64,000 bases of DNA, taken from contig JANQMA010000050.1 of NCBI GenBank assembly GCA_028280285.1, positions 38,055-102,054 on the forward strand. Reading direction: 5' to 3'. Each line of letters opens with the position of its first letter. The first letter of the stretch is position 1. The translations under genes and the position numbers were made by a program. The DNA comes from Candidatus Omnitrophota bacterium. Its GTDB lineage: Bacteria > Omnitrophota > Gorgyraeia > Zapsychrales > Zapsychraceae. The notes below the pieces were generated by a model. The model did no database searches. It saw only the letters and a list, made by a program, of their open reading frames with translations, and had not been told where the DNA came from. Positions 6,948 through 63,885 of the stretch are shown here, piece after piece.

Positions 6948-7017
6948 ACTATAAACACTAAACAGTTAACAGATTTGGCTAAGTTTGTTTACTGTTTAAA
7001 GTTTATTGTTTATATAG
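6948..7017. repeat. Heptad-periodic palindromic intergenic element, AT-rich variant (AAACAGT / ACTGTTT arms)
   Basis: aaactat aaacact aaacagt taacag ... tttgttt actgttt aaagttt attgttt: 7-nt units followed by their reverse complements. Same architecture as 32896..32968. Confidence 0.6.
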
Positions 7018-7037
7018 TCACTAAATTTTAGTTCCCC

Positions 7038-7066
7038 TTGTCAACCAAAACCAACTCTGCTACACT
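7038..7066 (+). promoter_or_regulatory. Sigma70-like promoter TTGTCA-N17-TACACT, 6 nt upstream of the ATG (leaderless or near-leaderless mRNA)
   Basis: ttgtca 7038-7043, 17-nt spacer, tacact 7061-7066; ATG at 7073 with no room for a Shine-Dalgarno. Confidence 0.4.
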
Positions 7067-7072
7067 GACCCC

Positions 7073-7825
7073 ATGAAATACAAAAGCCTTATCTTTACCC
7101 TATTTTTACTCCTTTCAACTACAGCTTCCGCCGGGATTATCGAAATCGAACGCGCCTTCATGGAGCAGGATTATCCGCGGGCCGAGGTATTGGCCGAAGA
7201 AGGCCTTAAGCGGCACAAGGGTGGTGATGTAAGTCTTTTTCAGTATTATCTGGGCTTAAGCCACATCCGTTTAGGTAAATATGGCCTGGCTGCATCGGCT
7301 TTGAAAGACTTAGTTAATGATCAAACCATTCCGACCGATCTGCGTGATAAAGCACACCTGGCACTGATCGATGCCTATTATCTAGCCGGCAAATATGATC
7401 GGGCTGCCGTTCTCGCCGATCAGTTTAAGACAGCGAGTTATAATTCTGATTATTTGAGCCTGCTTTATTTAAAGTCGGCACGTATTAAGTTTAAACAGGC
7501 CGCGTGGACTGATGCGAGGCTCAAACTGCGTACGATCATTAATCAATATCCGGAAAGCTTTGATGTCTATCTGGCGGACCAATTTTTACAAGAAAAGATG
7601 TTCTTCTCGGTTCAGGTCGGCTCTTTTCGCGATCGTGCCCGGGCTAAGGATTTGGTATCACAATTAAAAGCAGAAGGCAAAACCGCCTATATTTTTGAAG
7701 TGAAAGATTATTCGGGACGAAAATTTTATCGTGTGCGTGTCGGTCAGGTGTCATTTCTCGATCAGGCCAAAAACCTGCAGGAAAAATTGGCTAAGCAGGG
7801 GTATCCAACAAGAATCTACCCTTAG
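7073..7825 (+). CDS. Secreted TPR-like plus C-terminal SPOR (peptidoglycan-binding) domain protein
   Basis: Signal peptide MKYKSLIFTLFLLLSTTASAG. The C-terminal ~75 aa (FSVQVGSF...YRVRVGQ...) matches the SPOR fold consensus. Confidence 0.6.
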   Translation: MKYKSLIFTLFLLLSTTASAGIIEIERAFMEQDYPRAEVLAEEGLKRHKGGDVSLFQYYLGLSHIRLGKYGLAASALKDLVNDQTIPTDLRDKAHLALIDAYYLAGKYDRAAVLADQFKTASYNSDYLSLLYLKSARIKFKQAAWTDARLKLRTIINQYPESFDVYLADQFLQEKMFFSVQVGSFRDRARAKDLVSQLKAEGKTAYIFEVKDYSGRKFYRVRVGQVSFLDQAKNLQEKLAKQGYPTRIYP

Positions 7826-7892
7826 AGGTGTTAGGTTTAAGGTGTTGGCTGTGAGCCCTCTAAAACCCAAAACCTAACCCCTAAAACCTTTT
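7826..7892. repeat. Heptad palindromic element (GGTGTTA / GGTTTAA family), copy 1, flanking miaA
   Basis: gaggtgttaggtttaaggtgttgg ... taaaacccaaaacctaacccc. The two arms are reverse complements. Near-identical to the reverse complement of 8797..8853. Confidence 0.7.
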
Positions 7893-7899
7893 AGCTTAT

Positions 7900-8796
7900 A
7901 TGTCTACTTCTCTTATTATATTTATTACCGGTCCCACGGCTGTTGGTAAATCGGATGTTGCGCTTAATGTCGCCAGGAAGCTAGATGGTGAAATCATCGC
8001 CTGCGACTCAATGCAGGTGTATCGTGAAATTAATGTGGCCAGCAACAAACCTTCGCCTGAAGAACGGAAACAAACTTCTTATCACATGCTTGATGTGGCC
8101 TCTGTTTACGATGAGTTTGATGTGAATCAGTACGCGAAGCTGGCGATTGCGTGCGTTAAAGATATTATAAGTCGCGGCAAGCAGCCGATTGTCTGTGGAG
8201 GCACAGGCCTTTATATGGAAGCGCTTATTGACGGAGTGTTTGAAGGGCCGAAGGCCGACTGGAATTTAAGAGAAAAATTGGAACAAGAGTCTCCGGAACA
8301 ACTGCATGCGCGTCTTGAAGGGATTGACCCTGATGCAGCGGCTAAAATTCATCCCAATGATTTAAGGCGAATCATTCGCGCGCTCGAAGTGTTTGAATTA
8401 ACAGGCAAACCGATATCGGTTTGGCAGAAAGATCGTACAGGGCTCGCGGATAAATATGCGATTAAAGGTTTCGTTTTAACGCGCGGCCGGGACGCGCTTT
8501 ATGCCACGATCAACACGCGTGTCGATCAAATGATTAATCAAGGATTGATCGACGAGGTGAGCGCGCTTGATTTGGCACACATCAGTAAAACTGCACGGCA
8601 ACTGATCGGCATTAAAGAAACGCTTCAATATTTAAATAATGAAATTGACCGAGACAGGCTCATCGAGATAATCAAACAAAATTCGCGCCATTATGCCAAG
8701 AGACAATTAACTTGGTTTAGGAAAGATGAGCGTTTGCAGTGGATTGATCTTGGCCTAAGCGACCCGTTAAAGGAAATATTAGATAAGAGGTTTTAG
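7900..8796 (+). CDS. miaA: tRNA dimethylallyltransferase
   Basis: P-loop GPTAVGKS; CDSMQVYREINVASNKPS as in the MiaA family; typical length. Confidence 0.9.
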   Translation: MSTSLIIFITGPTAVGKSDVALNVARKLDGEIIACDSMQVYREINVASNKPSPEERKQTSYHMLDVASVYDEFDVNQYAKLAIACVKDIISRGKQPIVCGGTGLYMEALIDGVFEGPKADWNLREKLEQESPEQLHARLEGIDPDAAAKIHPNDLRRIIRALEVFELTGKPISVWQKDRTGLADKYAIKGFVLTRGRDALYATINTRVDQMINQGLIDEVSALDLAHISKTARQLIGIKETLQYLNNEIDRDRLIEIIKQNSRHYAKRQLTWFRKDERLQWIDLGLSDPLKEILDKRF

Positions 8797-8853
8797 GGGT
8801 TAGGTTTTGGGTTTTAGGGCGCCAACACCCAACACCTTAAACCTAACACCTCA
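8797..8853. repeat. Heptad palindromic element, copy 2, inverted orientation relative to 7826..7892
   Basis: The reverse complement shares 24/24 and 21/21 nt blocks with copy 1 and differs only in the central 12 nt. Confidence 0.7.
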
Positions 8854-8860
8854 TATTGTT

Positions 8861-10144
8861 ATGAGCAAGACACATACTCTCCCAACAACCTTACCCCGTG
8901 AAAAAGTATTTATCGTCGTCATTCATTTTAAAAATGACCGCAGTCCGTGGGGCACCGATGAGCTTCTCTATGAAATGCAGGAGCTGGTTAAAGCCTGCGA
9001 GGCTGAAGTGATTGGTCATGCCGTTTGTTCACTCGCCGATATTAATCCCAAATATTTTATCGGGGAAGGGAAGCTCGATGAGATTATGCGCGCGGCCGGT
9101 GCTTTGGGCACTGAAACGATTGTTTTTAGTGAAGATTTAAAGGGCTCCCAACAACGTAATTTAGAAGAGAAGATTGATATTAAGACCATTGACCGCACGC
9201 AGCTTATTCTGGATATTTTTGCTAAGCGCGCAACAAGCCGTGAAGGTAAGATGCAAGTTGAGCTTGCGCAACTTGAATATTTACTGCCGCGGCTTGTCGG
9301 GCGCGGGATCGAGCTTTCCCGCCAGGGTGCCGGGATCGGAACGCTTGGTCCCGGGGAAACCAAGCTTGAGGCCGACCGTCGGCGTATTTCCGACAGGATC
9401 GCCAAGCTTAAACGCGCGTTGATTGATGTCGAGAAAAAACGTGCCTTAACGCGCAAACGCCGCAAGGATAAAGGGGTTCCGGTGGTCTCTTTAGTGGGTT
9501 ACACCAATGCCGGTAAATCCACTTTACTTAACACATTGACCGATGCCGATGCATTGACCCGCGACGGCTTGTTTACCACATTGGATTCACTTTCACGTCA
9601 GCTGACACTGACTAATAATCAAAAAATGATTTTATCCGACACGGTTGGATTTATGCATGCCCTGCCGCATCATTTGATCGAATCGTTTAAGGCTACTTTA
9701 GAAGAGCTTCAAGAAGCAGATGTGCTCATGCATGTGGTCGATGTGTCGCGGTCGAATTTCAAAGACAGGATGGATGCGGTTCACGAGGTGCTCGAAGATC
9801 TCGACGTTGCATGGAAAAAAGTTTTATATGTCTTTAACAAAATTGATCAAGTTGAGGATACGGATTGGCTTGATCAACTTAAAGATAATTATGAACACTG
9901 TGCTTTTATATCGGCTAAACAAAATATCAATTTGGACGAACTACAGACAGCGCTTATAACCATGCTGTCTTCTCTATATATGTATGTGGAACTTGAAATT
10001 CCGATGGCCCGTATGGACTTGATTAATGTCCTGCATGAACAGGGCAAAGTAAGCCATATTACCTATGGGGAGAATACAATAGAAGTGGAGGCTTCGATTC
10101 CGGTTCAGGTTTCCAATGTTTTTAAACCTTTTTTGAATAAATAG
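8861..10144 (+). CDS. hflX: GTPase HflX
   Basis: GYTNAGKSTLLNTLT (G1) and DTVGFMHALPHHLIESFKATLEE (G3 plus the HflX signature). The track start at 8807 translates the repeat element; I prefer the ATG at 8861 (MSKTHTL). Confidence 0.85.
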   Translation: MSKTHTLPTTLPREKVFIVVIHFKNDRSPWGTDELLYEMQELVKACEAEVIGHAVCSLADINPKYFIGEGKLDEIMRAAGALGTETIVFSEDLKGSQQRNLEEKIDIKTIDRTQLILDIFAKRATSREGKMQVELAQLEYLLPRLVGRGIELSRQGAGIGTLGPGETKLEADRRRISDRIAKLKRALIDVEKKRALTRKRRKDKGVPVVSLVGYTNAGKSTLLNTLTDADALTRDGLFTTLDSLSRQLTLTNNQKMILSDTVGFMHALPHHLIESFKATLEELQEADVLMHVVDVSRSNFKDRMDAVHEVLEDLDVAWKKVLYVFNKIDQVEDTDWLDQLKDNYEHCAFISAKQNINLDELQTALITMLSSLYMYVELEIPMARMDLINVLHEQGKVSHITYGENTIEVEASIPVQVSNVFKPFLNK

Positions 10145-10168
10145 TGCCTGGCACTATTTATTTGCTAC
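10141..10168 (+). terminator. Rho-independent terminator after hflX
   Basis: Perfect hairpin AATAGTGCC-TGG-GGCACTATT followed by TATTT. Confidence 0.6.
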
Positions 10169-10180
10169 AATAGATTTAAT

Positions 10181-11107
10181 ATGAGATTAATATTAGTATT
10201 TATATTATCCATTCTCTTTGCTTCTACCTGTCTTGCCCGGGATGATTTTACCGGGTTTAAAGACGGGACATACCGCGAATTTTACGACTCCGGTGAATTG
10301 AGGCGGATTGTAACCGTTACGCGTCAAACGCTTACCGGCCCTTTTAATACGTTTTATAAAAACGGTTTTTTAAAAGGTGAAGGTACTTATGTTAACGGTG
10401 TTTTAGAAGGCAAAGCCATTGGGTATTATCCGACCAAACAGGTTAAGATGGAAGTTAATTATCATCATGGCCTCTATGAAGGCCTGACTAAAGTGTATTA
10501 TCCTAATGGGCAGTTGAAAGGCAAGAGCTATTATCGCGATGGCCTCCTCCATGGGGATTATAAAGAATACTGGCCGAATGGCGCCTTGTCTTTTGAAAGA
10601 ACGTATAAGCACGGCGTTGCCCAAGGTGAGGAAAAACAATATCATCCGCAGGGCTATCTTTTCCGTATTACTAATCTTGTTAATGGCATGCAGCATGGGC
10701 TTATCAGGGAGTTTAACAAAGAAGGCAATCTCGTTAAATCGTATGAAGCGCGCTATGATATGGCGAACGATAATTATAAAAAATATGATGATCAAGGAAG
10801 GCTCAAGACCGATCAACGGCTGGTTAATCCCGATATTAACGAAGTTGTTATGACCGACTATTACGAGACGGGTGAAATCCTAAGGGAAACAAGCATGAAA
10901 AGTGATACGAAGCACGGCCCTTATCTTGAGTATTATGTGGATGGGGCTATCAAAGAGATGGGCTTTTATTTTGACGGCAAACGTGAAGGAAGGGTACAAA
11001 AGTTCCGCCCGAACGGCGATCTTAAAGCCGAACACCACTTTAAAGAAGATAAGGAAATGTTTGTGAGAAAATACGATTCGTCCGGATCAGTTATAGATGA
11101 TGAGTAG
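10181..11107 (+). CDS. Secreted MORN-repeat (YwqK-like) protein
   Basis: Signal peptide; reiterated YYxNGxLxxExxYxxGxxxG units throughout. Confidence 0.55.
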   Translation: MRLILVFILSILFASTCLARDDFTGFKDGTYREFYDSGELRRIVTVTRQTLTGPFNTFYKNGFLKGEGTYVNGVLEGKAIGYYPTKQVKMEVNYHHGLYEGLTKVYYPNGQLKGKSYYRDGLLHGDYKEYWPNGALSFERTYKHGVAQGEEKQYHPQGYLFRITNLVNGMQHGLIREFNKEGNLVKSYEARYDMANDNYKKYDDQGRLKTDQRLVNPDINEVVMTDYYETGEILRETSMKSDTKHGPYLEYYVDGAIKEMGFYFDGKREGRVQKFRPNGDLKAEHHFKEDKEMFVRKYDSSGSVIDDE

Positions 11108-11864: not shown

Positions 11865-11892
11865 TTGACACAAAAATCTTTTTTGTTATAAT
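11865..11892 (+). promoter_or_regulatory. Sigma70 promoter TTGACA-N16-TATAAT of the hrcA operon
   Basis: ttgaca 11865-11870, tataat 11887-11892, immediately upstream of CIRCE. Confidence 0.75.
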
Positions 11893-11898
11893 AGCGGC

Positions 11899-11925
11899 TT
11901 AGCATTCGATCCTAAAGAGTGCTAA
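11899..11925 (+). promoter_or_regulatory. CIRCE operator (HrcA binding site)
   Basis: TTAGCATTC-N9-GAGTGCTAA, one mismatch to the TTAGCACTC-N9-GAGTGCTAA consensus, located between the promoter and hrcA. Confidence 0.85.
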
Positions 11926-12700: not shown

Positions 12701-12703
12701 GCG

Positions 12704-13312
12704 ATGGAGTCAATGATGACAGAAAAAAAAGAACAGCAAAAAAGTCAGAACAAAAATTCCGAAAAAAAGAAATCCAAAATGATTAAGGTTGATGAAGCCG
12801 AGTATACCGGTATTGTCGAGGAGTTAAAGGAAGTTAAAGACAAACATGTCCGTCTGTATGCCGAGTTTGATAATGCCCGCAAACGCATGGAACGTGAAAA
12901 AGAAGAGTTTGTTAAATATGCCGCCGAAGGCCTTATTGTTGAATTTTTGGAAGTGCACGATGATTTGGAGAGAAGCGTGGCAGCCGCCAAGCAAGAGATT
13001 AAAGACGGCAACTCTTCTCTTATTAAAGGCCTCGAGATGGTTAAAAATCGCACAGAAGAGTTTTTGAAAAAAAACGGTGTCAGACCAATGAAGGCCTTGG
13101 GCCAGACATTTGATCATAATTGTCATGAGGTCATGATGCAGCAAGAGACAACAGAACATGAAGATAATACAGTGATCGAAGTTTTTCAGCAAGGGTATTA
13201 CCTTGGGGATAAAGTGGTACGAACAGCAAAAGTAAAACTCGCTAAAAATAACAGTTCTCAACCGTCGAAGGAAAGCGAAGAAAACGGCGAAGTTGAGGCA
13301 AAGAATTTATAA
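12704..13312 (+). CDS. grpE: Nucleotide exchange factor GrpE
   Basis: VRLYAEFDNARKRMEREKEE core motif and coiled-coil N-terminus. Confidence 0.85.
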   Translation: MESMMTEKKEQQKSQNKNSEKKKSKMIKVDEAEYTGIVEELKEVKDKHVRLYAEFDNARKRMEREKEEFVKYAAEGLIVEFLEVHDDLERSVAAAKQEIKDGNSSLIKGLEMVKNRTEEFLKKNGVRPMKALGQTFDHNCHEVMMQQETTEHEDNTVIEVFQQGYYLGDKVVRTAKVKLAKNNSSQPSKESEENGEVEAKNL

Positions 13313-16681: not shown

Positions 16682-17055
16682 GCAAATTCGCGCAATTTTG
16701 GTTTCCGGTTATTGCCTATTCTGCTATTATTTTCGGTATCTCGGCTATACCGGGCGATGGGATTGAGCCCGGTTTTCCAGGATTAGACAAAATTTTTCAT
16801 GTGGCCGAATACATGCCGTATGGATTTTTGGTCTGCAGAGCTTTAAAAGAGTATTTTAATGTAGACAAAGAGGGGGCAATTTTATTTTGGACGACCCTGT
16901 TTGTTCTGTGTTATGGTGTGAGCGATGAAATTCACCAGTATTTCGTTCCTTTAAGAGAGGCGGATGTGTGGGATGTTGTGGCTGACACATTTGGGGGCTT
17001 CTTGGGAGGCCTTGTATATTTGAATTTGAATAAGAAAGGTAACATTGGATGCTAG
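16672..17055 (+). CDS. VanZ-like family membrane protein
   Basis: DKxxHxxxY ... SDEIHQYFVPLREADVWDVVADTFGGFLG pattern with TM helices. Confidence 0.55.
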   Translation: MRIGKFAQFWFPVIAYSAIIFGISAIPGDGIEPGFPGLDKIFHVAEYMPYGFLVCRALKEYFNVDKEGAILFWTTLFVLCYGVSDEIHQYFVPLREADVWDVVADTFGGFLGGLVYLNLNKKGNIGC

Positions 17056-17112
17056 ATGCTAGATGCTTGATGCTCGATGCTCGCGAGCAACGAGCGACAA
17101 GCAACGAGCATC
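17048..17112. repeat. Heptad palindromic element (GATGCTA / AGCAACG family)
   Basis: gatgcta gatgcta gatgctt gatgctc gatgctc gcg agcaacg agcgaca agcaacg agcatc. Confidence 0.65.
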
Positions 17113-17136
17113 AAATTACAGTTAAAGGATCTAATT

Positions 17137-18424: not shown

Positions 18425-19273
18425 ATGGGATTATTTGGCCGTAAAAAATATACTCTGGTTAATGTTAAGAAAAAAGAAATCCCTGCGGGCCTCTGGGAGA
18501 AATGTCCTGAGTGCGAAGCTGTTTCGTATAAAAAAGAATTGTCTGATAATCTTGAAGTGTGTCCTAAGTGCGATTATCATTTTTCTCTGACCGCCAAAGA
18601 GCGCATTAGCACAATCATTGATGAAGGTTCCTTTATCGAAACAGACAAAGATCTTTTTTCAGGCGATCCCCTCGAGTTTAAAGGTCCTAAGACATATCCG
18701 GAAAAAATTAAAGGAGATCAAAAACGTACTGGTTTGCGTGATGCGGTTATTACCGGCTACGGGACAGTACATGGCAAAAAAATCGGTATAGCTGTTACTG
18801 ATTCCAGGTTTATTATGGGCTCAATGGGCTCGGTTGTTGGGGAGCGTATTACGCGGATCATAGAATATTCGACCAAAGAGCAGATTCCCGTGATTATTGT
18901 CTCAGGTTCTGGTGGTGGTGCGCGTATGTACGAAGGGGTTTTCTCTTTGATGCAAATGGCGAAAACCTGTGCGGCACTGGCCCGACATAATGAGGCAGGG
19001 CTTTTGCATATATCGCTTTTGACCAATCCAACAATGGCAGGCATCATGGCTTCTTTTGCCGGGGTTGGTGATGTGATTATGGCGGAACCCCGTGCCTTAA
19101 TTGGATTTACAGGCCCAAGGGTTATTGAACAGACAATCAAGCAAAAGCTTCCGGAAGGTTTTCAGCGTTCGGAATTTTTATTGGAGCATGGTCTGATTGA
19201 TATGATTGTCAGCCGTCATGATTTAAAAGAGCGATTGGCGGATGTCGTTATGTACACTTCGTGTAGGACTTAG
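18425..19273 (+). CDS. accD: Acetyl-CoA carboxylase carboxyltransferase beta subunit
   Basis: N-terminal zinc ribbon CPECEAV...CPKCDYH followed by the carboxyltransferase domain. Confidence 0.85.
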   Translation: MGLFGRKKYTLVNVKKKEIPAGLWEKCPECEAVSYKKELSDNLEVCPKCDYHFSLTAKERISTIIDEGSFIETDKDLFSGDPLEFKGPKTYPEKIKGDQKRTGLRDAVITGYGTVHGKKIGIAVTDSRFIMGSMGSVVGERITRIIEYSTKEQIPVIIVSGSGGGARMYEGVFSLMQMAKTCAALARHNEAGLLHISLLTNPTMAGIMASFAGVGDVIMAEPRALIGFTGPRVIEQTIKQKLPEGFQRSEFLLEHGLIDMIVSRHDLKERLADVVMYTSCRT

Positions 19274-19328
19274 GCGTTGGAACTTGGAACTTGGAATTCC
19301 CAAGTCCTAAGTCCCACGTACTAAGTCC
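19266..19328. repeat. Heptad palindromic element (GGACTTAGG / CCTAAGTCC family)
   Basis: ggacttaggcgttggaacttggaacttggaattcccaagtcctaagtcccacgtactaagtcc. Confidence 0.65.
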
Positions 19329-19412
19329 TATTATTTCATTGCATTTTCCAGGCTTTTTGATTAGAATACAGCCTTTATATTAGACATTAAGTATTAATAT
19401 CTAAGGACAGAT

Positions 19413-30846: not shown

Positions 30847-30908
30847 GCCGTACTTAGTATTTCGTGCTTGGTACTTCGATGTACTAAGTACGATGTGCGA
30901 AGTACGAA
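30847..30908. repeat. Heptad palindromic element (GTACTTAG / CTAAGTAC, GTACTTCG family)
   Basis: gccgtacttagtatttcgtgcttggtacttcgatgtactaagtacgatgtgcgaagtacgaa. Confidence 0.65.
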
Positions 30909-30919: not shown

Positions 30920-31855
30920 ATGAAACAAGACTCACGCATTTTGATTGTAGGTCACGGCGCTGTTGAAAATAGTCTGGTCAGTTATTTTAAAAAAAATAAT
31001 TTTGCAAACGTTTTTTCCATCACAGAATTGGGTCTTAACCCAACGATACAATCGTCGGTGTATGCGTTCTTTCAAAAAGAAAAACCTGAATATGTCTTTT
31101 TAGGTTCGACAAAGTCCGGTGGCATTCAGGCTAATCTTGATTTTCCGGCTGACTTTGTTTATCACAATACGGAAAGTCAGAATAATATATTCTATGCGGC
31201 GCGCAAATTTGGCACCAAAAAGGTTCTTTATTATGCTAGCTCCTGTATGTATCCGAAAGAGGCTCCTCAGCCTATGGTCGAAGATTTATTTTTGACAGGA
31301 GCCCTTGAAGAGTCATCAAAGCCTTACGCTGTGGCCAAAATAGCAGGCACAGTTATGGCCCAAGCGTTTAGTAACCAGTATGGACTTAAGACAGTTGTTA
31401 TGGTCCCGGCGACAATTTACGGTCCGGGGTGTGATACGGATTTAGCCCACGCGCATGTGCTAGGCGCGCTTATTGCGAAATTTGCCAAAGCGGCTTGTGA
31501 GGGAGAAGATTCCGTTGAGTTGTGGGGAACAGGTAATCCCAGACGGGAATTTATTTATGTTGATGATTTTGTTGAGGCGAGCCTATTTTTGATAAACAAG
31601 CATGACGATGCGGCTATTATTAATGCCGGTGTGGGGGATGATATCACCATTAAAGAGCTGGCCGAAACAATTGCAGAGATCTCTGGCTTTAAAGGCAAAA
31701 TCACATTTGATTTTTCCAAGCCCGATGGTGTTAAACAAAAACTGCTTGATAGTTCGCGCATTAATAAATGCGGATGGAGAGCAAAGGTAGGTTTACGTGA
31801 AGGAATTGAAAAAACGTATCAATGGTATAACAAGTCTTTAGCGCATAGCGTTTAG
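30920..31855 (+). CDS. GDP-L-fucose synthase family (Fcl-like) with a degenerate dinucleotide-binding motif
   Basis: SSCMYPK...YAVAK (Ser/Cys/Tyr/Lys catalytic set) and a near-collinear match to Fcl throughout. The N-terminal GHRGMVG of Fcl is GHGAVEN here. Confidence 0.7.
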   Translation: MKQDSRILIVGHGAVENSLVSYFKKNNFANVFSITELGLNPTIQSSVYAFFQKEKPEYVFLGSTKSGGIQANLDFPADFVYHNTESQNNIFYAARKFGTKKVLYYASSCMYPKEAPQPMVEDLFLTGALEESSKPYAVAKIAGTVMAQAFSNQYGLKTVVMVPATIYGPGCDTDLAHAHVLGALIAKFAKAACEGEDSVELWGTGNPRREFIYVDDFVEASLFLINKHDDAAIINAGVGDDITIKELAETIAEISGFKGKITFDFSKPDGVKQKLLDSSRINKCGWRAKVGLREGIEKTYQWYNKSLAHSV

Positions 31856-31899
31856 CGTTTAGATAGTTACTAGTCGCTATACGCTGTACGCTATACGCT
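31841..31899. repeat. Heptad element (GCGTTTA tandem / CGCTATACGC)
   Basis: gcgcatagcgtttagcgtttag...cgctatacgctgtacgctatacgc; overlaps the last codons of the fcl-like gene. Confidence 0.5.
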
Positions 31900-31916
31900 T
31901 TTAGAAAGGCAGTAAT

Positions 31917-32864: not shown

Positions 32865-32895
32865 TAATTGAGAGGTAATTAAGTAAGAATTTTTT

Positions 32896-32968
32896 AAACA
32901 ATAAACGTTAAACATTAAACAAGTTTATTGCCGAACAGTTTAATGTTTACTGTTTAAAGTTTTAAACT
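32896..32968. repeat. Heptad palindromic element, AT-rich variant (AAACATT / AATGTTT)
   Basis: aaacaat aaacgtt aaacatt aaacaag ... cagttta atgttta ctgttta aag. Related to the element at 6948..7017. Confidence 0.65.
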
Positions 32969-39537: not shown

Positions 39538-39545
39538 CAAAAGGT

Positions 39546-39604
39546 ACTAGGTTTTAGGTGTTGGGTGTTAGTCGGCTAAAACCCAAAACCTCACACCTAA
39601 TACC
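39546..39604. repeat. Heptad palindromic element (GGTTTTAGG / TGTTGGG family, related to the miaA-flanking copies)
   Basis: actaggttttaggtgttgggtgttag tcggc taaaacccaaaacctcacacctaatacc. Confidence 0.7.
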
Positions 39605-39626
39605 TCGAATTATAAAGAGAAAAAAC

Positions 39627-41104: not shown

Positions 41105-41128
41105 TTGAATTGTTTGGTATGATATTGA

Positions 41129-41282
41129 TGTTGGAAGAAGTTTTAAGAGGTTTAAAGATGTTGAAAAATGTCAAAATGTTATATAAAGTTTCAAGAGGTT
41201 GTATTATTAACATTCTGTAACATTTAGAAACTTCTAACGTCTTCCAACCTATTTGAACCTTTTTAAACTTTTTTTAACCTTT
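41129..41282. repeat. Long (~150 bp) imperfect heptad palindrome
   Basis: tgttggaagaagttttaagaggtttaaagatgtt... is mirrored by ...aacatttagaaacttctaacgtcttccaacc. Confidence 0.55.
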
Positions 41283-41306
41283 GATACGATAAGGCCAATC
41301 AATATT

Positions 41307-44089: not shown

Positions 44090-44094
44090 TAATT

Positions 44095-44352
44095 AAAAAG
44101 TGAGAAATAAAAAGTAAAAAAGAAAATTTAGAATTAAAATAAATTAAAAAATAAAAATGATAATTGGTAGTTAGTAATTTGTAATTGGTATTTAAATAAT
44201 AAAAATCAAGACCTTTGAAAATAACATTATATATTTTTACTTTTTTTAAGACCTTTTCTGTTAAAACCAAATACTAATTACCAATTACTAAATACGATTT
44301 TAAATTTTTAATTTATTTAACTTTTTCATTTTCTTTTTTATTTTTTACTTTT
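44095..44352. repeat. Large AT-rich heptad palindrome (~260 bp)
   Basis: aattggtagttagtaatttgtaattggtatt mirrored by aatactaattaccaattactaaatac; the outer A/T arms are also mirrored. Confidence 0.6.
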
Positions 44353-44368
44353 CAATTCTCAATTAACT

Positions 44369-45458: not shown

Positions 45459-45878
45459 TTAATCCCGGACATCTGTATAAATGAAATCATTATAAGAAAG
45501 GTTTGTTTTTCCAAGCAAATCTTTTCTCATAGCTTTCACAATGTTACCTATTGCCTCTCTACCTTTCTCAGTATCTGGTTTTGTTCCTTTTGAATCGATA
45601 ACTAATTTAACCATATAATTTATGGCCTTAACGACATCATCGGAACAATACAGCCAAGATCTGTATTGTTCATCAAAAAATTTTCTTTTTAAATCGCTCG
45701 ATGCTGTTTTACCAATAAAAGATTTAAGCAAAACAAGCAAATTCGCATATTTTTCTTCCTTAAAACGTAACATCGCTTCGCTTCTTTTTGTCTTTATTGT
45801 AAAATGATATGTTACATAAGAACTTACCAGCCCTGCAACCAAAGGTCCTAAAAATAAAAAAATATCTCCCAAAATCAT
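45459..45878 (-). CDS. Hypothetical membrane-anchored protein
   Basis: ORF with an N-terminal TM helix; co-oriented with the KilA-N gene. Confidence 0.4.
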   Translation of the reverse strand: MILGDIFLFLGPLVAGLVSSYVTYHFTIKTKRSEAMLRFKEEKYANLLVLLKSFIGKTASSDLKRKFFDEQYRSWLYCSDDVVKAINYMVKLVIDSKGTKPDTEKGREAIGNIVKAMRKDLLGKTNLSYNDFIYTDVRD

Positions 45879-45903
45879 TTCTCCTAATTGAAAAGCTGTA
45901 AAT

Positions 45904-46722
45904 CTATTTTAGTTTTTTTACATCCTTATTGCTCAGTAATGATTTCATTTGAGTGATGGCTAACTGATTCAATTGTTGAAGTCGCTCTTCTTGTTCCACT
46001 TCCTGACCAATCAGCATGGCGTTAATGCTTTCTAAATTAGTCATGACAACCAATTGCTCCAGAGCGGCATGATCTCTAATATTTCCTTTTTTATCTGGAT
46101 TTTCTTTGCGCCACTCTTGAGCGGTTTTCCCGAATAGAGCTGCATTCAGTAAATCTGCTTCATTAGCATAAATGAAATTTATTCTTTCTTTTGATATTTT
46201 AGGAGGTATTAAATTCTCTTTAATAGCATCGGTATGAATATGGTAATTAATTTTAGCTAAAGTTCTTTGCAAATCCCATTCAAGCTTTTTGGTTTTACTT
46301 TCTTGTTCTTTTAATCGTTGAAATTCCTTAACCAGGTATATTTTAAATTCCGCGCTAATCCACATGCCAAATTCAAAGGCAATGTCTTTATGGGCATATG
46401 TGCCGCCATATCGACCTGCCTGAGCATGTAGACCGATTGCTTTGGTCTTTTCGACCCATTCTTTGACGCTTATTTTATAATTGTTAAGCCCTGCCTGACT
46501 TTTAATTATGGCGAATCCGCCATAATTAAAATCTGGATTATGTATCTTTTCCCAAATCCCGAGATATTCGACAGTATTTCTATTTCTCAGCCAATCGGAA
46601 ATAAAAAAATTTCCATCTTTTGCCTTTATCATATCTGTCAGCGAGATAAAGTCTTGATTATTTTTTGTGAAAAGGTGGATTTTGGATCCCTTAACCTCAA
46701 TAATTTGATTTTCATTTTTCAT
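45904..46722 (-). CDS. KilA-N domain protein (phage-associated DNA-binding)
   Basis: N-terminus IIEVKGSKIHLFTKNNQDFISLTDMIKAKDG...WLRNRNT resembles KilA-N/APSES. Confidence 0.55.
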   Translation of the reverse strand: MKNENQIIEVKGSKIHLFTKNNQDFISLTDMIKAKDGNFFISDWLRNRNTVEYLGIWEKIHNPDFNYGGFAIIKSQAGLNNYKISVKEWVEKTKAIGLHAQAGRYGGTYAHKDIAFEFGMWISAEFKIYLVKEFQRLKEQESKTKKLEWDLQRTLAKINYHIHTDAIKENLIPPKISKERINFIYANEADLLNAALFGKTAQEWRKENPDKKGNIRDHAALEQLVVMTNLESINAMLIGQEVEQEERLQQLNQLAITQMKSLLSNKDVKKLK

Positions 46723-46754
46723 ATGTAAATTTTCTATTTTTGCAAAAAATTTGG

Positions 46755-47138
46755 CTATTCTTCTAACTTTCCCAACAACTCACTAAAAGCAGGGTAGTAG
46801 AGGTCGAGGATATGGACATGGATTTGTTTGATGGCTTCCTGACTGTAGATGTGGACGGTTTTGTTGCGGTCATCGATCATCTGTAAGAAAAGATTTTCAT
46901 CTTCAATGATTCCATCGTTAAAAGCTTCTTTAAAGACGTCTTTGGGATATCTTAGGTCTTTGCCTTTTTCCTTATAATAGAGCTTTAATGTTTTCCAGCA
47001 CAGCTCGTAGGTAAACTCGAACCGCTTGATTGCGCTGTCGCGTAAGATATCGGTCAAAGGCTCCTGCTCAATGACTTCTTTGAGCCGGTCGTAGGCCGCT
47101 TGCCATTTTTCATACGATATTTCGAATTCATTTTTCAT
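46755..47138 (-). CDS. HEPN-domain nucleotidyltransferase substrate-binding protein (HI0074 family), putative toxin/antitoxin partner
   Basis: HI0074-like fold signature FEFTYELCWKTLKLY...NKTVHIY. Confidence 0.65.
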   Translation of the reverse strand: MKNEFEISYEKWQAAYDRLKEVIEQEPLTDILRDSAIKRFEFTYELCWKTLKLYYKEKGKDLRYPKDVFKEAFNDGIIEDENLFLQMIDDRNKTVHIYSQEAIKQIHVHILDLYYPAFSELLGKLEE

Positions 47139-47424
47139 AAATTACCTTCCCCTGGCTAAGGACTAGTTTACGAAAATCCTCTTCGACATCATCTAAATAA
47201 ATAATATCCATTTGATAAAGGCCGATCACGTTTTCCAGATCGTCTTCTAGGTTTTTTTGAATGTCAAAATGTGGCTTTGTGCCGGTAACGGCAATATCAA
47301 AATCAGAGCCTGTGCGGTGCGTGTCTTTACTGCGGGAGCCGAAGAGATAAACGGTTTGTGGATCTATATGTTCTTTTAAGATAGCGATGGTGTGATTTAA
47401 GATTTCTTGCTCACGTTCAGTCAT
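47128..47424 (-). CDS. Minimal nucleotidyltransferase (MNT), partner of the HEPN protein
   Basis: LFGSRSKDTHRTGSDFDIAV (GS...DxD); overlaps the HEPN gene by 11 nt. Start taken at MTEREQEI; the track start translates the operator palindrome. Confidence 0.65.
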   Translation of the reverse strand: MTEREQEILNHTIAILKEHIDPQTVYLFGSRSKDTHRTGSDFDIAVTGTKPHFDIQKNLEDDLENVIGLYQMDIIYLDDVEEDFRKLVLSQGKVIYEK

Positions 47425-47435
47425 TGTAAAATAGT

Positions 47436-47481
47436 TAAGGGACGTATGCCTAATAATAATTATTAGGCGCACGTCCCTTTA
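47436..47481. promoter_or_regulatory. Near-perfect 46-bp palindrome upstream of the MNT/HEPN pair (putative autoregulatory operator; may double as the gap terminator)
   Basis: agggacgtatgcctaataat | aattattaggcgcacgtccct. Confidence 0.5.
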
Positions 47482-48640: not shown

Positions 48641-48673
48641 AATAAAAAAGGGCCAGGATTTTTGTCCTGGCCC
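48641..48673 (-). terminator. Strong intrinsic terminator on the minus strand inside the gap / DUF2237 divergent intergenic region
   Basis: GGGCCAGGA-caaaaa-TCCTGGCCC followed by TTTTTTATTT on the minus strand, ~140 nt upstream of the gap ATG and upstream of a TTGACA-like gap promoter. Confidence 0.5.
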
Positions 48674-57411: not shown

Positions 57412-57801
57412 ATGATGATGAATCAGAAAATTCTTGTGATCGATGGTCATCCTGTGTATATCAAAAAAACCGAAGGTTTTTTAAGGGGACTTACCTTGCA
57501 AAATATTACGCTTGCTAAAACTGGCGAAGAAGGGCTTATCAGATTTAAGGCGGATGCTCCCGATTTAGTTATTTTAAGCGGCATGCTGCCGGATACAAGT
57601 AGCGTCGATGTGTGCGCGGTGATCAAAGAACATAATCCGCGTATAGTGGTGATTGTTCAAACCGGTCTTTTCACGTCGGACGAGACGATCAAAAATTTCA
57701 AGGCGTGTGGGGCGGATTTCATTTTGGAACGCCAAGAAAAAGATTTAAAGCCGCTTCAGGATGCGGTTGAGGATTTTTTGTGTAAGTCTAGTCGTGCATA
57801 A
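57412..57801 (+). CDS. Stand-alone receiver-like protein lacking the phospho-acceptor Asp (pseudo-receiver)
   Basis: Receiver fold, but the ISDWNMP position reads ILSGMLP (Asp to Ser). The acidic pair reads DG, and the conserved Lys position is not Lys. Confidence 0.6.
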   Translation: MMMNQKILVIDGHPVYIKKTEGFLRGLTLQNITLAKTGEEGLIRFKADAPDLVILSGMLPDTSSVDVCAVIKEHNPRIVVIVQTGLFTSDETIKNFKACGADFILERQEKDLKPLQDAVEDFLCKSSRA

Positions 57802-57885
57802 TCTTGCCTAAATATCTTCTGTGCCATTCTTTCTGGTTTTTGGTATAATTAATATTCATTGAGTTATTTGGCTCGAGTTAGCCGT

Positions 57886-58080
57886 TTGCATTGGAATGCT
57901 GAGTGACTGAAATCGTCTTCCAAAAAATAAACGATTTCCGGAACGAAGCAGCCAATGCAGAAACCTAACGAGAGCTTTATGTATGATTGGTAGTATTCCT
58001 CGCTTCGAACAGTCCTCGCGCTATTTTTGCTACTACAAAAATTAGCGCTGCGGATACTCGCTCGTGAATACTACCAATCA
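57886..58080. repeat. Two adjacent long hairpins in the 5' region of the kinase-like gene, the second with 15-bp perfect inverted ends
   Basis: First hairpin: tgcattgg...gaaatcgt...acgatttc...ccaatgca. Second hairpin: tgattggtagtattc ... gaatactaccaatca with heptad-like interior. An extended -10 (tggtataat) lies at 57841-57849 upstream. Confidence 0.55.
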
Positions 58081-58089
58081 ATTTTTACT

Positions 58090-58824
58090 ATGTTAAAAAA
58101 ACCAAAAATCAAAATCGATGCCTTTGGTTTTCAGCCGGGCGATACTATTCTGAGCAAATATGAAATTATCGATAAGCTAGGCTCCGGCTGGGAAGGAGAG
58201 GTTTATAAGATCAAAGAGATTGCGACGGATATTGAACGAACAGCCAAAATCTTTTTCCCGCAACGCAATATCCGCAATAAAGCCTCCCGTTTTTACGCCC
58301 GCAAATTACATAAATTAAGACAGTGCCATATTGTTATTCATTATCATAATGAAGAAACGATCTATATTGATGGTATTCCGATTACTGTTTTGATTTCTGA
58401 ATATGTGGAGGGAGCGCTGTTTTCGGATTTTCTTCAAAAGTTTCCCAGAAAGCGGTTAACCCCGTTTCAAGCGCTACACCTGCTTTACGCGCTTGCGCGA
58501 GGCATTGAGGAAATTCATCTGCGCAATGATTATCACGGCGATCTGCATACCGATAATATTATTGTGAACCGCTTTGGCCTCAACTTTCATTTGAAGCTTT
58601 TGGATATGTTTCACTGGGGTTCGCCAACAAAGAATAATCGCAATTACGATTTAACGTGCTTGGTGAGGATTTTTTATGAGTCCCTTGGTGGGGCTAAATA
58701 TTATGCCAAGCTGCCTAAGGAGATCAAATATATTTGCTGTGGTCTTAAGGATTCATTGATCTGTAAACGCTTCAAAACTGTCTCTCAGCTGCGTGAGTAT
58801 CTGGAGAAGATGCAGTGGAAGTAA
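58090..58824 (+). CDS. Protein kinase-like domain protein (Kdo/WaaP/RIO-like lipopolysaccharide kinase family)
   Basis: Gly-rich GSGWEGEVYK, catalytic-loop-like HGDLHTDNII. The track N-terminus translates the hairpin; start taken at MLKKPK. Confidence 0.5.
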   Translation: MLKKPKIKIDAFGFQPGDTILSKYEIIDKLGSGWEGEVYKIKEIATDIERTAKIFFPQRNIRNKASRFYARKLHKLRQCHIVIHYHNEETIYIDGIPITVLISEYVEGALFSDFLQKFPRKRLTPFQALHLLYALARGIEEIHLRNDYHGDLHTDNIIVNRFGLNFHLKLLDMFHWGSPTKNNRNYDLTCLVRIFYESLGGAKYYAKLPKEIKYICCGLKDSLICKRFKTVSQLREYLEKMQWK

Positions 58825-59800: not shown

Positions 59801-59805
59801 TTGTT

Positions 59806-60504: not shown

Positions 60505-60505
60505 G

Positions 60506-61168: not shown

Positions 61169-61922
61169 TTTTTTTGCGGCGATTCTGCACATAGGCGTGC
61201 TGAACGGCTGTGTAAGGATCAAACGCATCGTCCACAATTCTTTCATAATTGTCCCGGATATTATAAGAGAAATTATTAACCCGGCGCACATAACGGGCAA
61301 CGGTCCAGGCGTCTTCCGGATCAACATCGGTGGCCGATAGCCAGGTAAATGGGTTAAAAACAGCATCGCCCACATAACCTAAAATATCCCGCCCGGTTGT
61401 TGGTCCGAGAATAGGGACAACTAGATAAAAGCCTTCATCCATACCATAGTATCCCAGCGTTTGTCCGAAGTCTTCACTTTGTTTCTCCAGATTAAAGGCA
61501 GCTTTAGCCGGATCAAAAAACCCACCCAAACCGATAGTTGAATTAATCAGAAACCTTCCGGCGACAATACCGGCTGATTTGCCTTTTTTCTGAAATACGT
61601 TATTGAAGAAACGTTTCGGTGCCGCCAAATTCACAAATAAATTGTTGATGCATTTTCGTGCCGGACGCGGGACAATCATATCATAGCCTTTAGACAAAGG
61701 ATTGAATATATACGTAATTAACTTATCGTTAAACGTAAACATGGCTTTATTAAATTTATTGAGCGGATCATTGATCTGTACGGTTTCTTCTTCAGACTCC
61801 CAATCGTCTTCTATTTCTAAAATGTCTTGGGTTAGAAAATCTTCGGCGTGTATATGGCTGGGGGTAAAACAAATAAATGAAAAGAGGAGAAATAAAATAA
61901 TAAATAGATTTTGTTTTTTCAT
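61158..61922 (-). CDS. mlaA: MlaA / VacJ outer-membrane lipoprotein
   Basis: DPLNKFNKAMFTFND...GGFFDPA core of VacJ. Confidence 0.7.
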   Translation of the reverse strand: MKKQNLFIILFLLFSFICFTPSHIHAEDFLTQDILEIEDDWESEEETVQINDPLNKFNKAMFTFNDKLITYIFNPLSKGYDMIVPRPARKCINNLFVNLAAPKRFFNNVFQKKGKSAGIVAGRFLINSTIGLGGFFDPAKAAFNLEKQSEDFGQTLGYYGMDEGFYLVVPILGPTTGRDILGYVGDAVFNPFTWLSATDVDPEDAWTVARYVRRVNNFSYNIRDNYERIVDDAFDPYTAVQHAYVQNRRKKIKE

Positions 61923-61929
61923 AGATTCC

Positions 61930-62550
61930 TTATTTTGCGCGTAGTTTGACCATTAAGTCTTCAAAGGAAGACTCTCCTAAAATAGTATTAAACTGGCTGC
62001 GGTAATTACCGACTGTACTAACACCTTCTATAATAATATCATATATTTTCCATCCATTACCAGAATCATACATATTAAAATCGACAGAAATTTTTTTACC
62101 GTTTGTCAGTAGTATATTGGTTTGTACCCTGCTGCGTTTGCCTTGCGACTTTTCTCTTAGGTAAACAATTTGTTCTCCCGAATAGGCATCGGTTTTGGTT
62201 AGATATGTATCTTTCAAGACTTTAACAAAAACTTTGATAAATTCTTTTTTCTCTTCTGGTGTGCGTGCCCTCCAATGATGGCCGAGGGAGCGTTTGGCGA
62301 TTTGTTCGAAACTAAAGATTGGTTTAAGGACATGCCATAGTTTTTCCCGGCGTTCTTTGATTTTATCAAACCCTTGCAGGTTGGGATCATCCAGTACTTT
62401 TAGGCTGCGATCAATGGTAGCGACGATAATTTTACCCGGGAGTTCCTGGTTTTTGGTGCCTTTAGTGTTTTGAGCCGATACAGCGCGCGGTGTTAAAAGG
62501 CTGGCGGTAAGTATAAAATAAAAGAATAATAGAGGAAGCTGTTTTATCAA
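61930..62550 (-). CDS. mlaC: MlaC (Ttg2D) periplasmic phospholipid-binding protein
   Basis: Signal peptide, MlaC-like size and pattern, position between mlaD and mlaA. Confidence 0.55.
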   Translation of the reverse strand: MIKQLPLLFFYFILTASLLTPRAVSAQNTKGTKNQELPGKIIVATIDRSLKVLDDPNLQGFDKIKERREKLWHVLKPIFSFEQIAKRSLGHHWRARTPEEKKEFIKVFVKVLKDTYLTKTDAYSGEQIVYLREKSQGKRSRVQTNILLTNGKKISVDFNMYDSGNGWKIYDIIIEGVSTVGNYRSQFNTILGESSFEDLMVKLRAK

Positions 62551-62552
62551 AA

Positions 62553-62993
62553 CTATTCGTCTCCTACAACAAGATTTTTGACCACTGATAATAAATCAAA
62601 AGAAGGCTCTGTGTCAAATATGCTTTCGTTGGGGCCCAATACGATGTCTGATCCACCGGGAAGGATTTCAACATAGTTCTCACCAAGAATTCCTTTTGTG
62701 CGGATGGAGGCAATGGCATCATCCTGGATTTCGATCCCGTTTTTAATCAGCATGGTCACTTTAGCCTGATAGTCGTCTAGTTCGATTGACTTGACTTTGC
62801 CGATAGTAACCCCGGCGATTTCAATGTTGGTATCTGTTTTAAGACCGGTGACGGAGGTAAAGGTTGCGCTGACGGGATAATATTTATTGTTAAAGAAATC
62901 AACCTGCCCGAGATTAATCGAAATATAGGCCATGCATAAGAGGCCGATGAGAATAAATGCTCCGACTGAAAATTCAACGGCTGCTTTTTTCAT
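62553..62993 (-). CDS. mlaD: MlaD (MCE-domain) protein
   Basis: N-terminal TM helix plus MCE domain (IEIAGVTIGKVKSIEL). Confidence 0.7.
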   Translation of the reverse strand: MKKAAVEFSVGAFILIGLLCMAYISINLGQVDFFNNKYYPVSATFTSVTGLKTDTNIEIAGVTIGKVKSIELDDYQAKVTMLIKNGIEIQDDAIASIRTKGILGENYVEILPGGSDIVLGPNESIFDTEPSFDLLSVVKNLVVGDE

Positions 62994-63025
62994 AATATAA
63001 TCCTTGGTTAGTGTTTAATTATTTA

Positions 63026-63087
63026 GTTGCTCGTTGCTAGTCGCTTGTTGCCAGCAACCGGCAACCAGCAACCAGCAACGGCTGGTC
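63026..63087. repeat. Heptad palindromic element (GTTGCT.. / AGCAAC..) inside the mla operon
   Basis: gttgctc gttgcta gtcgctt gttgcc agcaacc ggcaacc agcaacc agcaacg. Confidence 0.65.
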
Positions 63088-63098
63088 AAATTTTTTAT

Positions 63099-63831
63099 CT
63101 AATTGTCCAGCTCCCCATGGAGAAATTTCTGAACAATGCTATTATCCGAGTTTTTAATTTTCTGCGGTGTCCCTGATTCAACAATAGATCCGTTATGCAG
63201 CATAGCTACCTGATCGACGATACTGAAAATATTAGGTATTTCATGGCTGACAATAATGGCTGTCAGATTATTTTTTTTCTGTAGTGATCTGATTAATGCG
63301 TGAATCGTGTTAGTTGTCATCGGATCAAGGCCTGTTGTCGGCTCATCAAAAAGAATTATTTCCGGATGCGTAATCAAACAGCGTGCCAGGGCAACGCGTT
63401 TTTTCATGCCGCCGCTGATCTGTGATGGAAATTTATTACGGTCTTTACGTAAGCCCACATCATCCAATGCTTTTAATACTTTTTTGCGGATGGCATAGGG
63501 TTTAAGATTTGTTTTTTCTTTCACGGGAAAGGCGACATTTTCATAGACATTAAGAGAATCAAACAAAGCACTGCCTTGAAACACAATGCCTAAACGTTCC
63601 TTGATGCCTTTCAAATCGCTACCTTTAAGATGATGGATGTTTAAGTTATTGATTAAAACTTGTCCACCGTCGGGCCTAAGCAGTCCGATAATGTGTTTAA
63701 GCAAAACAGATTTGCCCTTACCGCTGGATCCGATTAGAGCGCAGATTTCGCCTGTTTTGACCGTTAGGTTAACGCCTTTTAAAATCTTTTGGTCGTCAAA
63801 ATTTTTAACAAGGTTTTTTATTTCTATCATA
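63099..63831 (-). CDS. mlaF: MlaF ABC transporter ATP-binding protein
   Basis: GSSGKGKSVLLK Walker A and LSGGMKKRVALAR signature. The track N-terminus (MVHEVRSTSYEP) translates the repeat element; start taken at MIEIKNL. Confidence 0.8.
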
Positions 63832-63850
63832 TTTTTAGAAGTAAATAACT

Positions 63851-63885
63851 CCGGTTCGTACGACGTACTTCGTACTTCGTGGACC
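63851..63885. repeat. Heptad element fragment (GTACTTCG family, related to 30847..30908)
   Basis: ccggttcgtacgacgtacttcgtacttcgtgg. Confidence 0.5.

Follow-up and report, generated by a model that had tools for sequence, protein, structure and literature searches.

Heptamer-periodic hairpin repeats between the genes of a Candidatus Omnitrophota genome segment

What are the long imperfect palindromes that lie between the genes of a compact bacterial genome, and how did they come to be there? The question is raised by a 64-kb stretch of Candidatus Omnitrophota DNA (contig JANQMA010000050.1; the whole of this stretch is referred to as the window), in which an earlier note had listed 15 intergenic palindromic loci and described them as arrays of 7-bp units. 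Gene density is high in the window, which is 94% coding, with 40% G+C and nearly all genes on one strand. The elements found between these genes have a 7-nt periodicity, consist of inverted arrays, are strictly intergenic in placement, are missing from the corresponding sites of relatives and occur as near-identical copies in both orientations. They are non-coding and non-autonomous. The account favoured here, with moderate confidence, is that they are slippage-prone heptamer hairpin repeats, dispersed by copying, that have invaded the spacers between stop codons and ribosome-binding sites and are carried in operon transcripts as stem-loops without a U-tract.

Seven-nucleotide periodicity and hairpin structure

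The window was compared with itself at fixed lags, a segment being scored where there were at least 11 self-matches in 14 positions, with 40 dinucleotide-preserving shuffles as the control; mononucleotide shuffles were also run. There are 26 segments at lag 7, against a mean of 2.3 and a maximum of 7 in the shuffles. Other periods within the range of 4–13 are at chance level; period 14, with 22 segments, is twice 7, and the 6 segments at period 10 (2.6 in the shuffles) are chiefly contributed by the locus at 41129. Tandem Repeats Finder independently identified period-7 arrays in adjacent left and right pairs, the second being the reverse complement of the first. The heptamer periodicity reported in the earlier note therefore stands against shuffled sequence, and the intergenic bias is borne out too. 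All of the heptamer elements fall within the 5.8% of the window that is non-coding. This has 23 gaps of at least 40 nt, and 11 of them hold an element, with a lag-7 identity of 0.44–0.59 compared with about 0.25–0.3 at other lags. Summed by length, they make up approximately a quarter of the non-coding bases.

Long imperfect hairpins are predicted for all but one of the 15 loci in the list, with z scores of −4 to −8 against shuffled sequence, the exception being 63851 (z +0.3). Heptamer-periodic arms are present in 11 of the 15, as 10 simple hairpins and one compound palindrome. The list of heptamer palindromes, for which the statistical case is strong, is thus reduced to 11, since 41129, 57886 and 57984 are not 7-periodic and 63851 is a direct array without a partner. 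A simple element is about 60–70 bp in length and has 3–5 degenerate units per arm, a loop of 4–18 nt and the same unit family in inverted orientation on the other side. The stems have 19–33 pairs, of which 76–86% are Watson-Crick, and predicted folding energies of −19 to −40 kcal/mol. Watson-Crick pairing of the arms reaches 81% in the best register; a slip of 7 nt in either direction lowers it to 67%, and other offsets give 27%. The stems are therefore inherently slippable. Mismatches recur approximately every 7 nt, since the degenerate position of the unit is shared by the two arms. Two properties were tried as tests of selection at the RNA level. The mismatches are chiefly of the transversion type, with G·U pairs (11) not clearly above A·C pairs (5), and the sense and antisense folding energies of the elements are mixed, so that no strand-specific RNA signature is seen.

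The unit words in the window are GGTKTTA, GATGCTN, GTTGCTN, GTACTTN, GGAACTT, AGCGTTT, TAAACNN and ATTGGTA, and at least seven unrelated unit families are present among the 11 elements. Single-linkage clustering of unit words chained everything together and resolved no families. A register shared by all loci, with a TGYT core, had been proposed. It fits GATGCTN, GTTGCTN, GGTGTTA and NNTGTTT, but not GGACTTA/GAACTTG, GGAACTT, GTACTTN, AGCGTTT, ATTGGTA or GGTTTTA; it holds in under half of the loci, and the shared register is thus only partly true.

The G/T-rich arm comes first in 9 of the 11 elements. This polarity reads alike on both strands and is therefore a property of the DNA. It speaks for a role at that level, in which the elements would bind a nucleoid or regulatory protein as arrays, or would form cruciforms or G-quadruplexes. 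The arms likewise show no preference for the transcribed strand, and the heptamer repeats of Xanthomonas and Nostoc, which have tracts of three to four G, form G-quadruplexes in vitro (PMC4692102). Such a role is nonetheless very improbable, given that most families (GATGCTN, GTACTTN, TAAACNN) are without G-tracts, that stems with 19% mismatches make poor cruciforms and that the units are too diverse for a single DNA-binding specificity.

Intergenic sites, empty sites in relatives and dispersed copies

At most sites in the window the 3' arm ends 10–35 nt upstream of the next start codon. In 6 of 10 cases the preceding gene has its stop codon within the first units of the element or immediately next to it, and the lengths of the upstream proteins are unchanged. 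Stop codons in all six frames are found in 6 of the 11 elements and in 25% of shuffles, a weak effect.

Family F1 has a GGTGTTA/GGTTTTA arm followed by a CTAAAAC/CTAACCC arm. One copy (7826–7889, z −4.6) fills the gap between a SPOR-domain gene and miaA, and an inverted copy (8787–8852, z −4.6) fills the gap between miaA and hflX and contains the miaA stop codon (8794–8796). A third copy (39542–39605, z −5.7) lies between a heptosyltransferase and a glycosyltransferase gene. Family F2 (TAAACNN / NNGTTTA), in which the A/C-rich arm comes first, has one member at 6945–7012 (−24.4 kcal/mol, z −5.2; 27 pairs, 85% Watson-Crick), with the stop codon of a giant upstream gene (6945–6947) within its first unit, and another of TAAACNN units at 32892–32966 (z −4.0). 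The element between the VanZ and DUF1015 genes (17044–17116; −31.6 kcal/mol, z −4.9) has five GATGCTN units followed by the complement of four GTTGCTN units and contains the VanZ stop codon (17053–17055). That at 19264–19330 (GGACTTA/GGAACTT units; −38.1 kcal/mol, z −8.1) contains the accD stop codon (19271–19273) and lies ahead of a conserved malK-type promoter.

Three elements lie among NAD-epimerase/dehydratase genes, in agreement with the UXS cluster named in the earlier note. Besides the F2 member at 32892, these are a hairpin of GTACTTN units (30849–30906; −33.7 kcal/mol, z −7.9), 9 nt past a stop codon and with the likely ATG (30923) about 15 nt further on, and one of AGCGTTT / CGCTATA units (31838–31902, z −5.4) between two epimerase/dehydratase genes, the upstream of which enters two units before its stop codon (31853–31855). 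The same note correctly placed the hairpin of GTTGCTN / AGCAACN units (63024–63082; sense folding energy −39.8 kcal/mol, z −8.3) between the minus-strand genes for MlaF, an ABC ATPase, and MlaD. The compound element is an AT-rich palindrome of about 275 nt between priA and fmt (44090–44365; −58.4 kcal/mol, z −7.6, lag-7 identity 0.56). Its inner arms are arrays of TAATTGG (44161–44190) and ACCAATT (44266–44297), and its outer arms are A-rich and T-rich arrays with 7/14-nt periodicity.

Stable hairpins directly after stop codons could be intrinsic transcription terminators or attenuators, and the element at 19264–19330 is at a real operon end, before a conserved promoter. T-rich sequence, judged by eye, follows this element and that at 31838–31902 only. 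In scans of 6–20 kb and 30–49 kb with a stem-plus-T-tract rule, no element was called, whereas canonical terminators were called elsewhere, for example at 48650–48673. The stems are long, mismatched and often AT-rich, and 8 of 10 elements lie within operons whose genes abut or overlap in relatives. Without U-tracts, the elements are not expected to terminate transcription, and this explanation, which the earlier note also argued against, is barely credible.

The sites were compared with those of relatives obtained via homologues of MiaA and DUF1015 (contigs L018–L023 and L117–L119), in which DUF1015 is 71–89% identical to that of the window. The SPOR-domain gene and miaA are 1–2 nt apart in L019 and L117, compared with 74 nt in the window. 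Overlap of miaA and hflX is seen in L018 and L019, where the window has a gap of 64 nt, and the VanZ/DUF1015 gap is 9–15 nt in L020, L021 and L022 compared with 81 nt. These three window gaps are almost entirely hairpin. Past the insert, the ribosome-binding region can still be recognised at the DUF1015 site, as can the promoter at the malK site. Comparison of orthologous intergenic sites, a check suggested in the earlier note, thus finds them empty in the relatives. These share the operons but lack the hairpins in them, which shows that the hairpins were inserted recently.

Approximately 116 kb of syntenic relatives contain two lag-7 segments, against 20 for the window; a small GATGCT/GTTGCT hairpin at another site (L119, 6367–6391) accounts for one of the two. 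A much more distant Omnitrophota contig, L001 (50% G+C), has G+C-rich heptamer hairpins. With close relatives nearly empty and hairpins in this distant contig, the distribution of the elements is patchy and lineage-specific. Most likely, their colonisation of the short spacers that separate a stop codon from the next ribosome-binding site took place in this Omnitrophota lineage once it had split from the nearest sampled relatives. The L001 hairpins, at about 13050–13135 and 5255–5312, are composed of CCCCAGT/CTGGGGA and GTCAGCA/TGACNGC units, and one of them ends directly at an ATG. The CCCCAGT units are presumably the same as the unit of the cyanobacterial short tandemly repeated repetitive (STRR) sequence STRR1.

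Copies of the same hairpin are found at separate sites. Over 77 nt, the 7826 element and the 8797 element in reverse complement share 89.6% identity, the arms being identical and the differences mainly in the loop. The F1 member at 39546, which is 31 kb away, aligns to these two copies with scores of 73–82. In family F2, the best alignment of the 6945 and 32892 elements is again in opposite orientations. Mismatches between the arms are shared by the copies, which therefore have a common ancestral sequence and not independent origins in the same units. Because of the inverted pair of 90% identical hairpins that flanks it (7826–7889 and 8787–8852), miaA has a layout resembling a composite element; this may be simply local copying.

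The elements could be of the repetitive extragenic palindrome (REP), REP doublet (REPIN) or miniature inverted-repeat transposable element (MITE) type, moved in trans by a transposase whose gene lies in another part of the genome. The enzyme might be a REP-associated tyrosine transposase (RAYT) or a Y1 transposase of the IS200/IS605 type, working on hairpins in single-stranded DNA; a DDE transposase is a further candidate. Like the REP, REPIN and bacterial interspersed mosaic elements (BIME) of proteobacteria, those of the window are dense, extragenic, imperfect palindromes within operons that are plausibly mRNA hairpins, with near-identical copies in both orientations at distant sites, and the orthologous sites in relatives are precisely empty. 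This much of the REP/MITE-like character suggested in the earlier note is borne out. Against it, inspection of the junctions of the three aligned F1 copies, with the empty sites of relatives as reference, found no consistent target-site duplication, and the three copies share no terminal motif such as the GTAG end of REP elements or any other conserved tetranucleotide. An internal 7-nt periodicity is foreign to REP and MITE sequences, which usually have few families with many copies each. No Y1_Tnp, DDE transposase, RAYT or integrase domain is encoded among the window proteins, a weak argument as only about 66 kb of the genome is covered. On the whole, transposition in trans is decidedly unlikely. 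Assignment to REP/REPIN was rejected on the lack of a shared GTAG end and the seven or more unit families among 11 elements, and assignment to MITE on the lack of a consistent target-site duplication at the F1 copies.

Known heptamer repeats and the same words in other bacteria

Heptanucleotide repeats have been known in cyanobacteria since 1990, and the canonical STRR units are CCCCAGT, TTGGTCA and CAACAGT. The window elements resemble STRR in being degenerate tandem heptamers, with a 7-nt tandem excess, many dispersed non-coding copies (11 loci in 64 kb), some of them inside operons, and several unit families in one genome. They differ in their units, in having an Omnitrophota host rather than a heterocystous cyanobacterium (Calothrix, Anabaena, Nostoc), and in that nearly every array has an inverted partner. 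Integron attC sites have the consensus RYYYAAC at the 5' end and GTTRRRY at the 3' end. An attC identity was rejected because the F1 words GTTAGGT/ACCTAAC are in the reverse order, with GTT first, and because the flanking genes are syntenic housekeeping genes and no integrase domain is present in the window.

The work cited in PMC4692102 includes a report of tandem heptanucleotides in Calothrix and a 2007 report that heptameric repeats are over-represented in many bacterial genomes. The GGGAATC arrays of Xanthomonas and the GGGGAYT arrays of Nostoc lie between genes, close to where reading frames end. They are transcribed, differ in length from one relative to another and had no function found for them, and Xanthomonas has 70–75 convergent array pairs per genome that are capable of forming stem-loops (PMC4692102). 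The window elements share the location near reading-frame ends and the inverted pairs, but have many units, mostly without G-tracts, in place of one dominant unit with tracts of three to four G that form G-quadruplexes. The G-quadruplex type of heptamer repeat (Rehm et al. 2015), with at least four tracts of three or more G spaced 7 nt apart, was rejected, since runs of GG to GGGG are found only in parts of F1.

A hairpin of degenerate heptamers, its length set by repeat number, is described for P6b of the Nostoc tRNA-Leu(UAA) group I intron (Costa et al. 2002, as given in PMC3488679). The 10 simple elements and the compound one are inverted-array hairpins of this kind, or of the Xanthomonas pair type. 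As in P6b, degenerate heptamers on both arms pair, and length may likewise vary by whole units, the one case seen being between the metagenome contigs L036 and L069 and not in the window's own organism. Unlike P6b, which is inside an intron, the window hairpins are intercistronic and number at least 11 in 64 kb. TAACTGA direct repeats occur just upstream of start codons in Beggiatoaceae, Cyanobacteria and Bacteroidetes (PMC4679880). These too are intergenic heptamers with a word that recurs across phyla, and their orientation upstream of starts is shared by CTAAAAC/CTAACAC arrays; they differ from the window elements in being a single word, in direct orientation, with almost no inverted partners.

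The suggestion in the earlier note that this is an undescribed class of repeat is therefore not supported, as heptamer arrays and inverted-pair hairpins have been published (PMC4692102, PMC3488679, PMC4679880). The elements belong to a class that is already described. What is new is the phylum, a literature search having found no report of such elements in Omnitrophota, and the evidence of recent insertion and copying is unusually clear.

Related words are also found far outside this phylum. The F1 23-mer AAAACCCAAAACCTMACMCCTAA, of CCAAAAC/CTAACAC units, matched 46 metagenome contigs with G+C contents of 0.30–0.58, where fewer than one match is expected by chance on our own estimate. Nearly all of the 46 stretches hold further lag-7 arrays of other unit types, some of them as hairpins. 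A gapped detector of hairpin partners, at a score of 12 or more, found 42 partners and 3 in the control; an ungapped strict detector was dropped because its control was as high as its signal. Exact look-up of neighbouring proteins named five hosts, these being Patescibacteria bacterium, Xenococcus, Trichodesmium erythraeum, Zixibacteria bacterium and Tannerella forsythia, so that Patescibacteria, Cyanobacteria, Zixibacteria and Bacteroidota are represented. A Trichodesmium transcriptome paper has nothing on heptamers (PMC4143802). Open reading frames (ORFs) of at least 80 aa that begin with ATG within 60 nt downstream of the 23-mer are on the A/C-rich strand in 12 contexts and on the opposite strand in 2. 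Words common to Patescibacteria, Zixibacteria and Tannerella through one 23-mer make a comparative search for the factor responsible feasible.

A hairpin in L036 (2498–2615) has a counterpart in L069 (reverse strand, about 168–290), and together with about 40 nt on each side the two are approximately 97% identical, whereas the surrounding genes are 73% identical. The elements differ by an indel of one 7-nt unit. Identity of this order suggests strong constraint, or recent transfer or conversion. Gap-length analysis of five other pairs of related contigs found no clean 7-nt indels. There is no sign of carriage by phages, as the F1 23-mer has no match among the 2.9 million viral contigs of IMG/VR. 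Three GATGCTN units matched 46 times in viral contigs, many of the matches being 21 nt apart and resembling coding repeats, from which no inference is drawn. A blastn search of 7822–7892 against PLSDB plasmids also gave no match, possibly owing to the low-complexity filter.

CCCCAGT units occur in some of the metagenome contigs as well. In L029 (about 10975–11016), L067 (about 8429–8451) and L038, L045 and L055, a CTAAAAC/CTAACAC array is located inside long ORFs that resemble KsgA/RsmA, as judged by eye from motifs. It would encode ...TPKTQNLTPKT..., at two different protein positions between lineages; the host of L029 is Patescibacteria bacterium. Very long mixed arrays of TATTCAT, GTGCATA and GGGTTAG, with repeated blocks of about 100–160 nt, are present in L050 (33–750) and L051, which are one contig of 411 kb.

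These matches bear on the possibility that the elements are cis-acting RNA sequences, read in 7-nt steps by a conserved trans factor and tuning the translation or stability of the flanking cistrons. The ribosome itself could be this factor, or an OB-fold protein of the cold-shock or S1 type. The G/U-rich arm of F1 has AGGUG words, which are Shine-Dalgarno-like, and the A/C-rich arm has CACCU, which is anti-Shine-Dalgarno-like. The spread of one 23-mer through 46 contigs and five named hosts across phyla, the excess of ORF starts on the A/C-rich strand, the near identity of the L036 and L069 elements and the position of the 3' arms shortly before start codons all favour such a function, and a translational role with cold-shock protein binding has been proposed for the TAACTGA heptamers (PMC4679880). 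The units nevertheless differ so widely (GATGCTN, GTACTTN, AGCGTTT, TAAACNN, ATTGGTA) that there is no single recognition word, and only F1 is Shine-Dalgarno-like. Close relatives run the same operons without the elements, pairing of the arms is without strand asymmetry and no role in gene regulation was found for the heptamer repeats of Xanthomonas and Nostoc (PMC4692102). RNA-level control of this kind is thus the main alternative, though a tentative and, on balance, improbable one.

In a broader version of this idea, which is doubtful at best, a vocabulary of heptamer words (such as GGTGTTA/GGTTTTA, with the complement TAACACC/TAAAACC) is kept in at least five phyla with the A/C-rich sense strand upstream of starts, and the hairpins are the masked, self-paired form of a widespread, undescribed translational control or mobile element. 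The words might then be read by a conserved factor, such as the ribosomal anti-Shine-Dalgarno region, S1 or cold-shock proteins, or written by an enzyme that synthesises or inserts 7-nt repeats.

Gene setting and a reading of the elements

The proteins of the window match most closely those of Candidatus Omnitrophota, and the DUF1015 matches are named Omnitrophota or Omnitrophica. MiaA has at most 68% identity to any other sequence and about 50% to named Omnitrophota genomes. Window proteins are also present in the Logan assemblies of SRR20820735. The Logan contigs L017 and L024 are identical to the window, and L024 breaks inside the palindrome at 57984–58079. The genes include the giant ORF, the SPOR-domain gene, miaA, hflX, the hrcA-grpE-dnaK-dnaJ operon, VanZ, DUF1015, accD, a sugar-nucleotide and lipopolysaccharide cluster, priA, fmt and mlaFEDCA. 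Scans for tRNA and tmRNA found none in the window, and no Rfam family was matched at the gathering score. The giant gene (1–6947) runs on upstream, with at least 2309 codons inside the window; in L017 (1–9048) 3205 residues are called and the 5' end is still open. Ahead of hrcA-grpE-dnaK-dnaJ, at 11865–11925, are a perfect σ70 consensus promoter (TTGACA, 16 nt spacer, TG-TATAAT) and, after it, a CIRCE operator, TTAGCATTC-N9-GAGTGCTAA, with one mismatch. Between the genes fmt and gap is a small minus-strand island (45459–47472) with reversed strand and GC skew. It contains an ORF of no known type, a KilA-N domain protein and a nucleotidyltransferase and substrate-binding pair resembling an MNT/HEPN toxin-antitoxin.

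Four of the loci originally listed lie outside the heptamer-hairpin group. The lone direct array at 63856–63881 (locus 63851; z +0.3) has 3.7 copies of a GTACTTC-type unit, GAAGTAC on the minus strand, with no inverted partner, and is at or inside the called start of mlaF, making it a doubtful member. The palindrome of 166 nt at 41125–41290 has arms with a period of about 10 nt (AAGAAGTTTA / AACCTTTTTA) and is not heptameric; it could represent another kind of repeat, or else a degenerate relative. Non-periodic imperfect palindromes at 57885–57960 and 57984–58079 (−31 and −42 kcal/mol) are located between a response-regulator gene and a Ser/Thr kinase gene, and a search of 57700–58200 against Rfam at E ≤1 gave no match.

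The longest ORFs that start at 8807, 17077, 30893, 39558, 41253 and 58027, often with TTG or GTG, begin in or just after hairpins, and these starts are probably wrong. Those at 8861, 17137, 30923, 39627, 41309 and 58091 are likelier, as judged from where a ribosome-binding site lies or from alignments to relatives. For annotation, the hairpins should not be labelled as terminators, and start-codon predictions are shifted where the longest ORF begins inside an element, as several do.

How the elements arise can be proposed in outline. The arrays would lengthen and shorten in 7-nt steps through slipped-strand mispairing, as is suggested by the 67% pairing of slipped arms and the L036/L069 indel. 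Inverted arrays may originate, or persist, through intrastrand template switching, and whole hairpins would occasionally be copied to new sites, leaving no target-site duplication. Within operons the elements are probably co-transcribed, folding into stable mismatched stem-loops. At most, these might behave as REP/BIME-like intercistronic RNA hairpins, protecting 3' ends or offering a processing site. Insertion would break the translational coupling that overlapping stop and start codons provide in the relatives. The elements are considered to be mainly selfish or neutral passengers, tolerated only where coding sequences and ribosome-binding sites stay intact.

Several findings weigh against this reading of slippage-prone, copied passengers. 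Heptamer words of the window are found in at least four other phyla, ORF starts favour the A/C-rich strand, and the L036/L069 hairpin is conserved beyond its surrounding genes; these are awkward for neutral junk, and hint at selection or transfer between lineages. The RNA-level signal from mismatch types and folding energies is ambiguous.

The window is a clean natural experiment, in that approximately a quarter of the non-coding DNA of a compact genome is made up of hairpins and syntenic relatives have the same operons without them. Whole hairpins can be copied, and operons tolerate hairpins between the stop codon and the ribosome-binding site. The heptamer-repeat phenomenon is thereby extended to the Omnitrophota.

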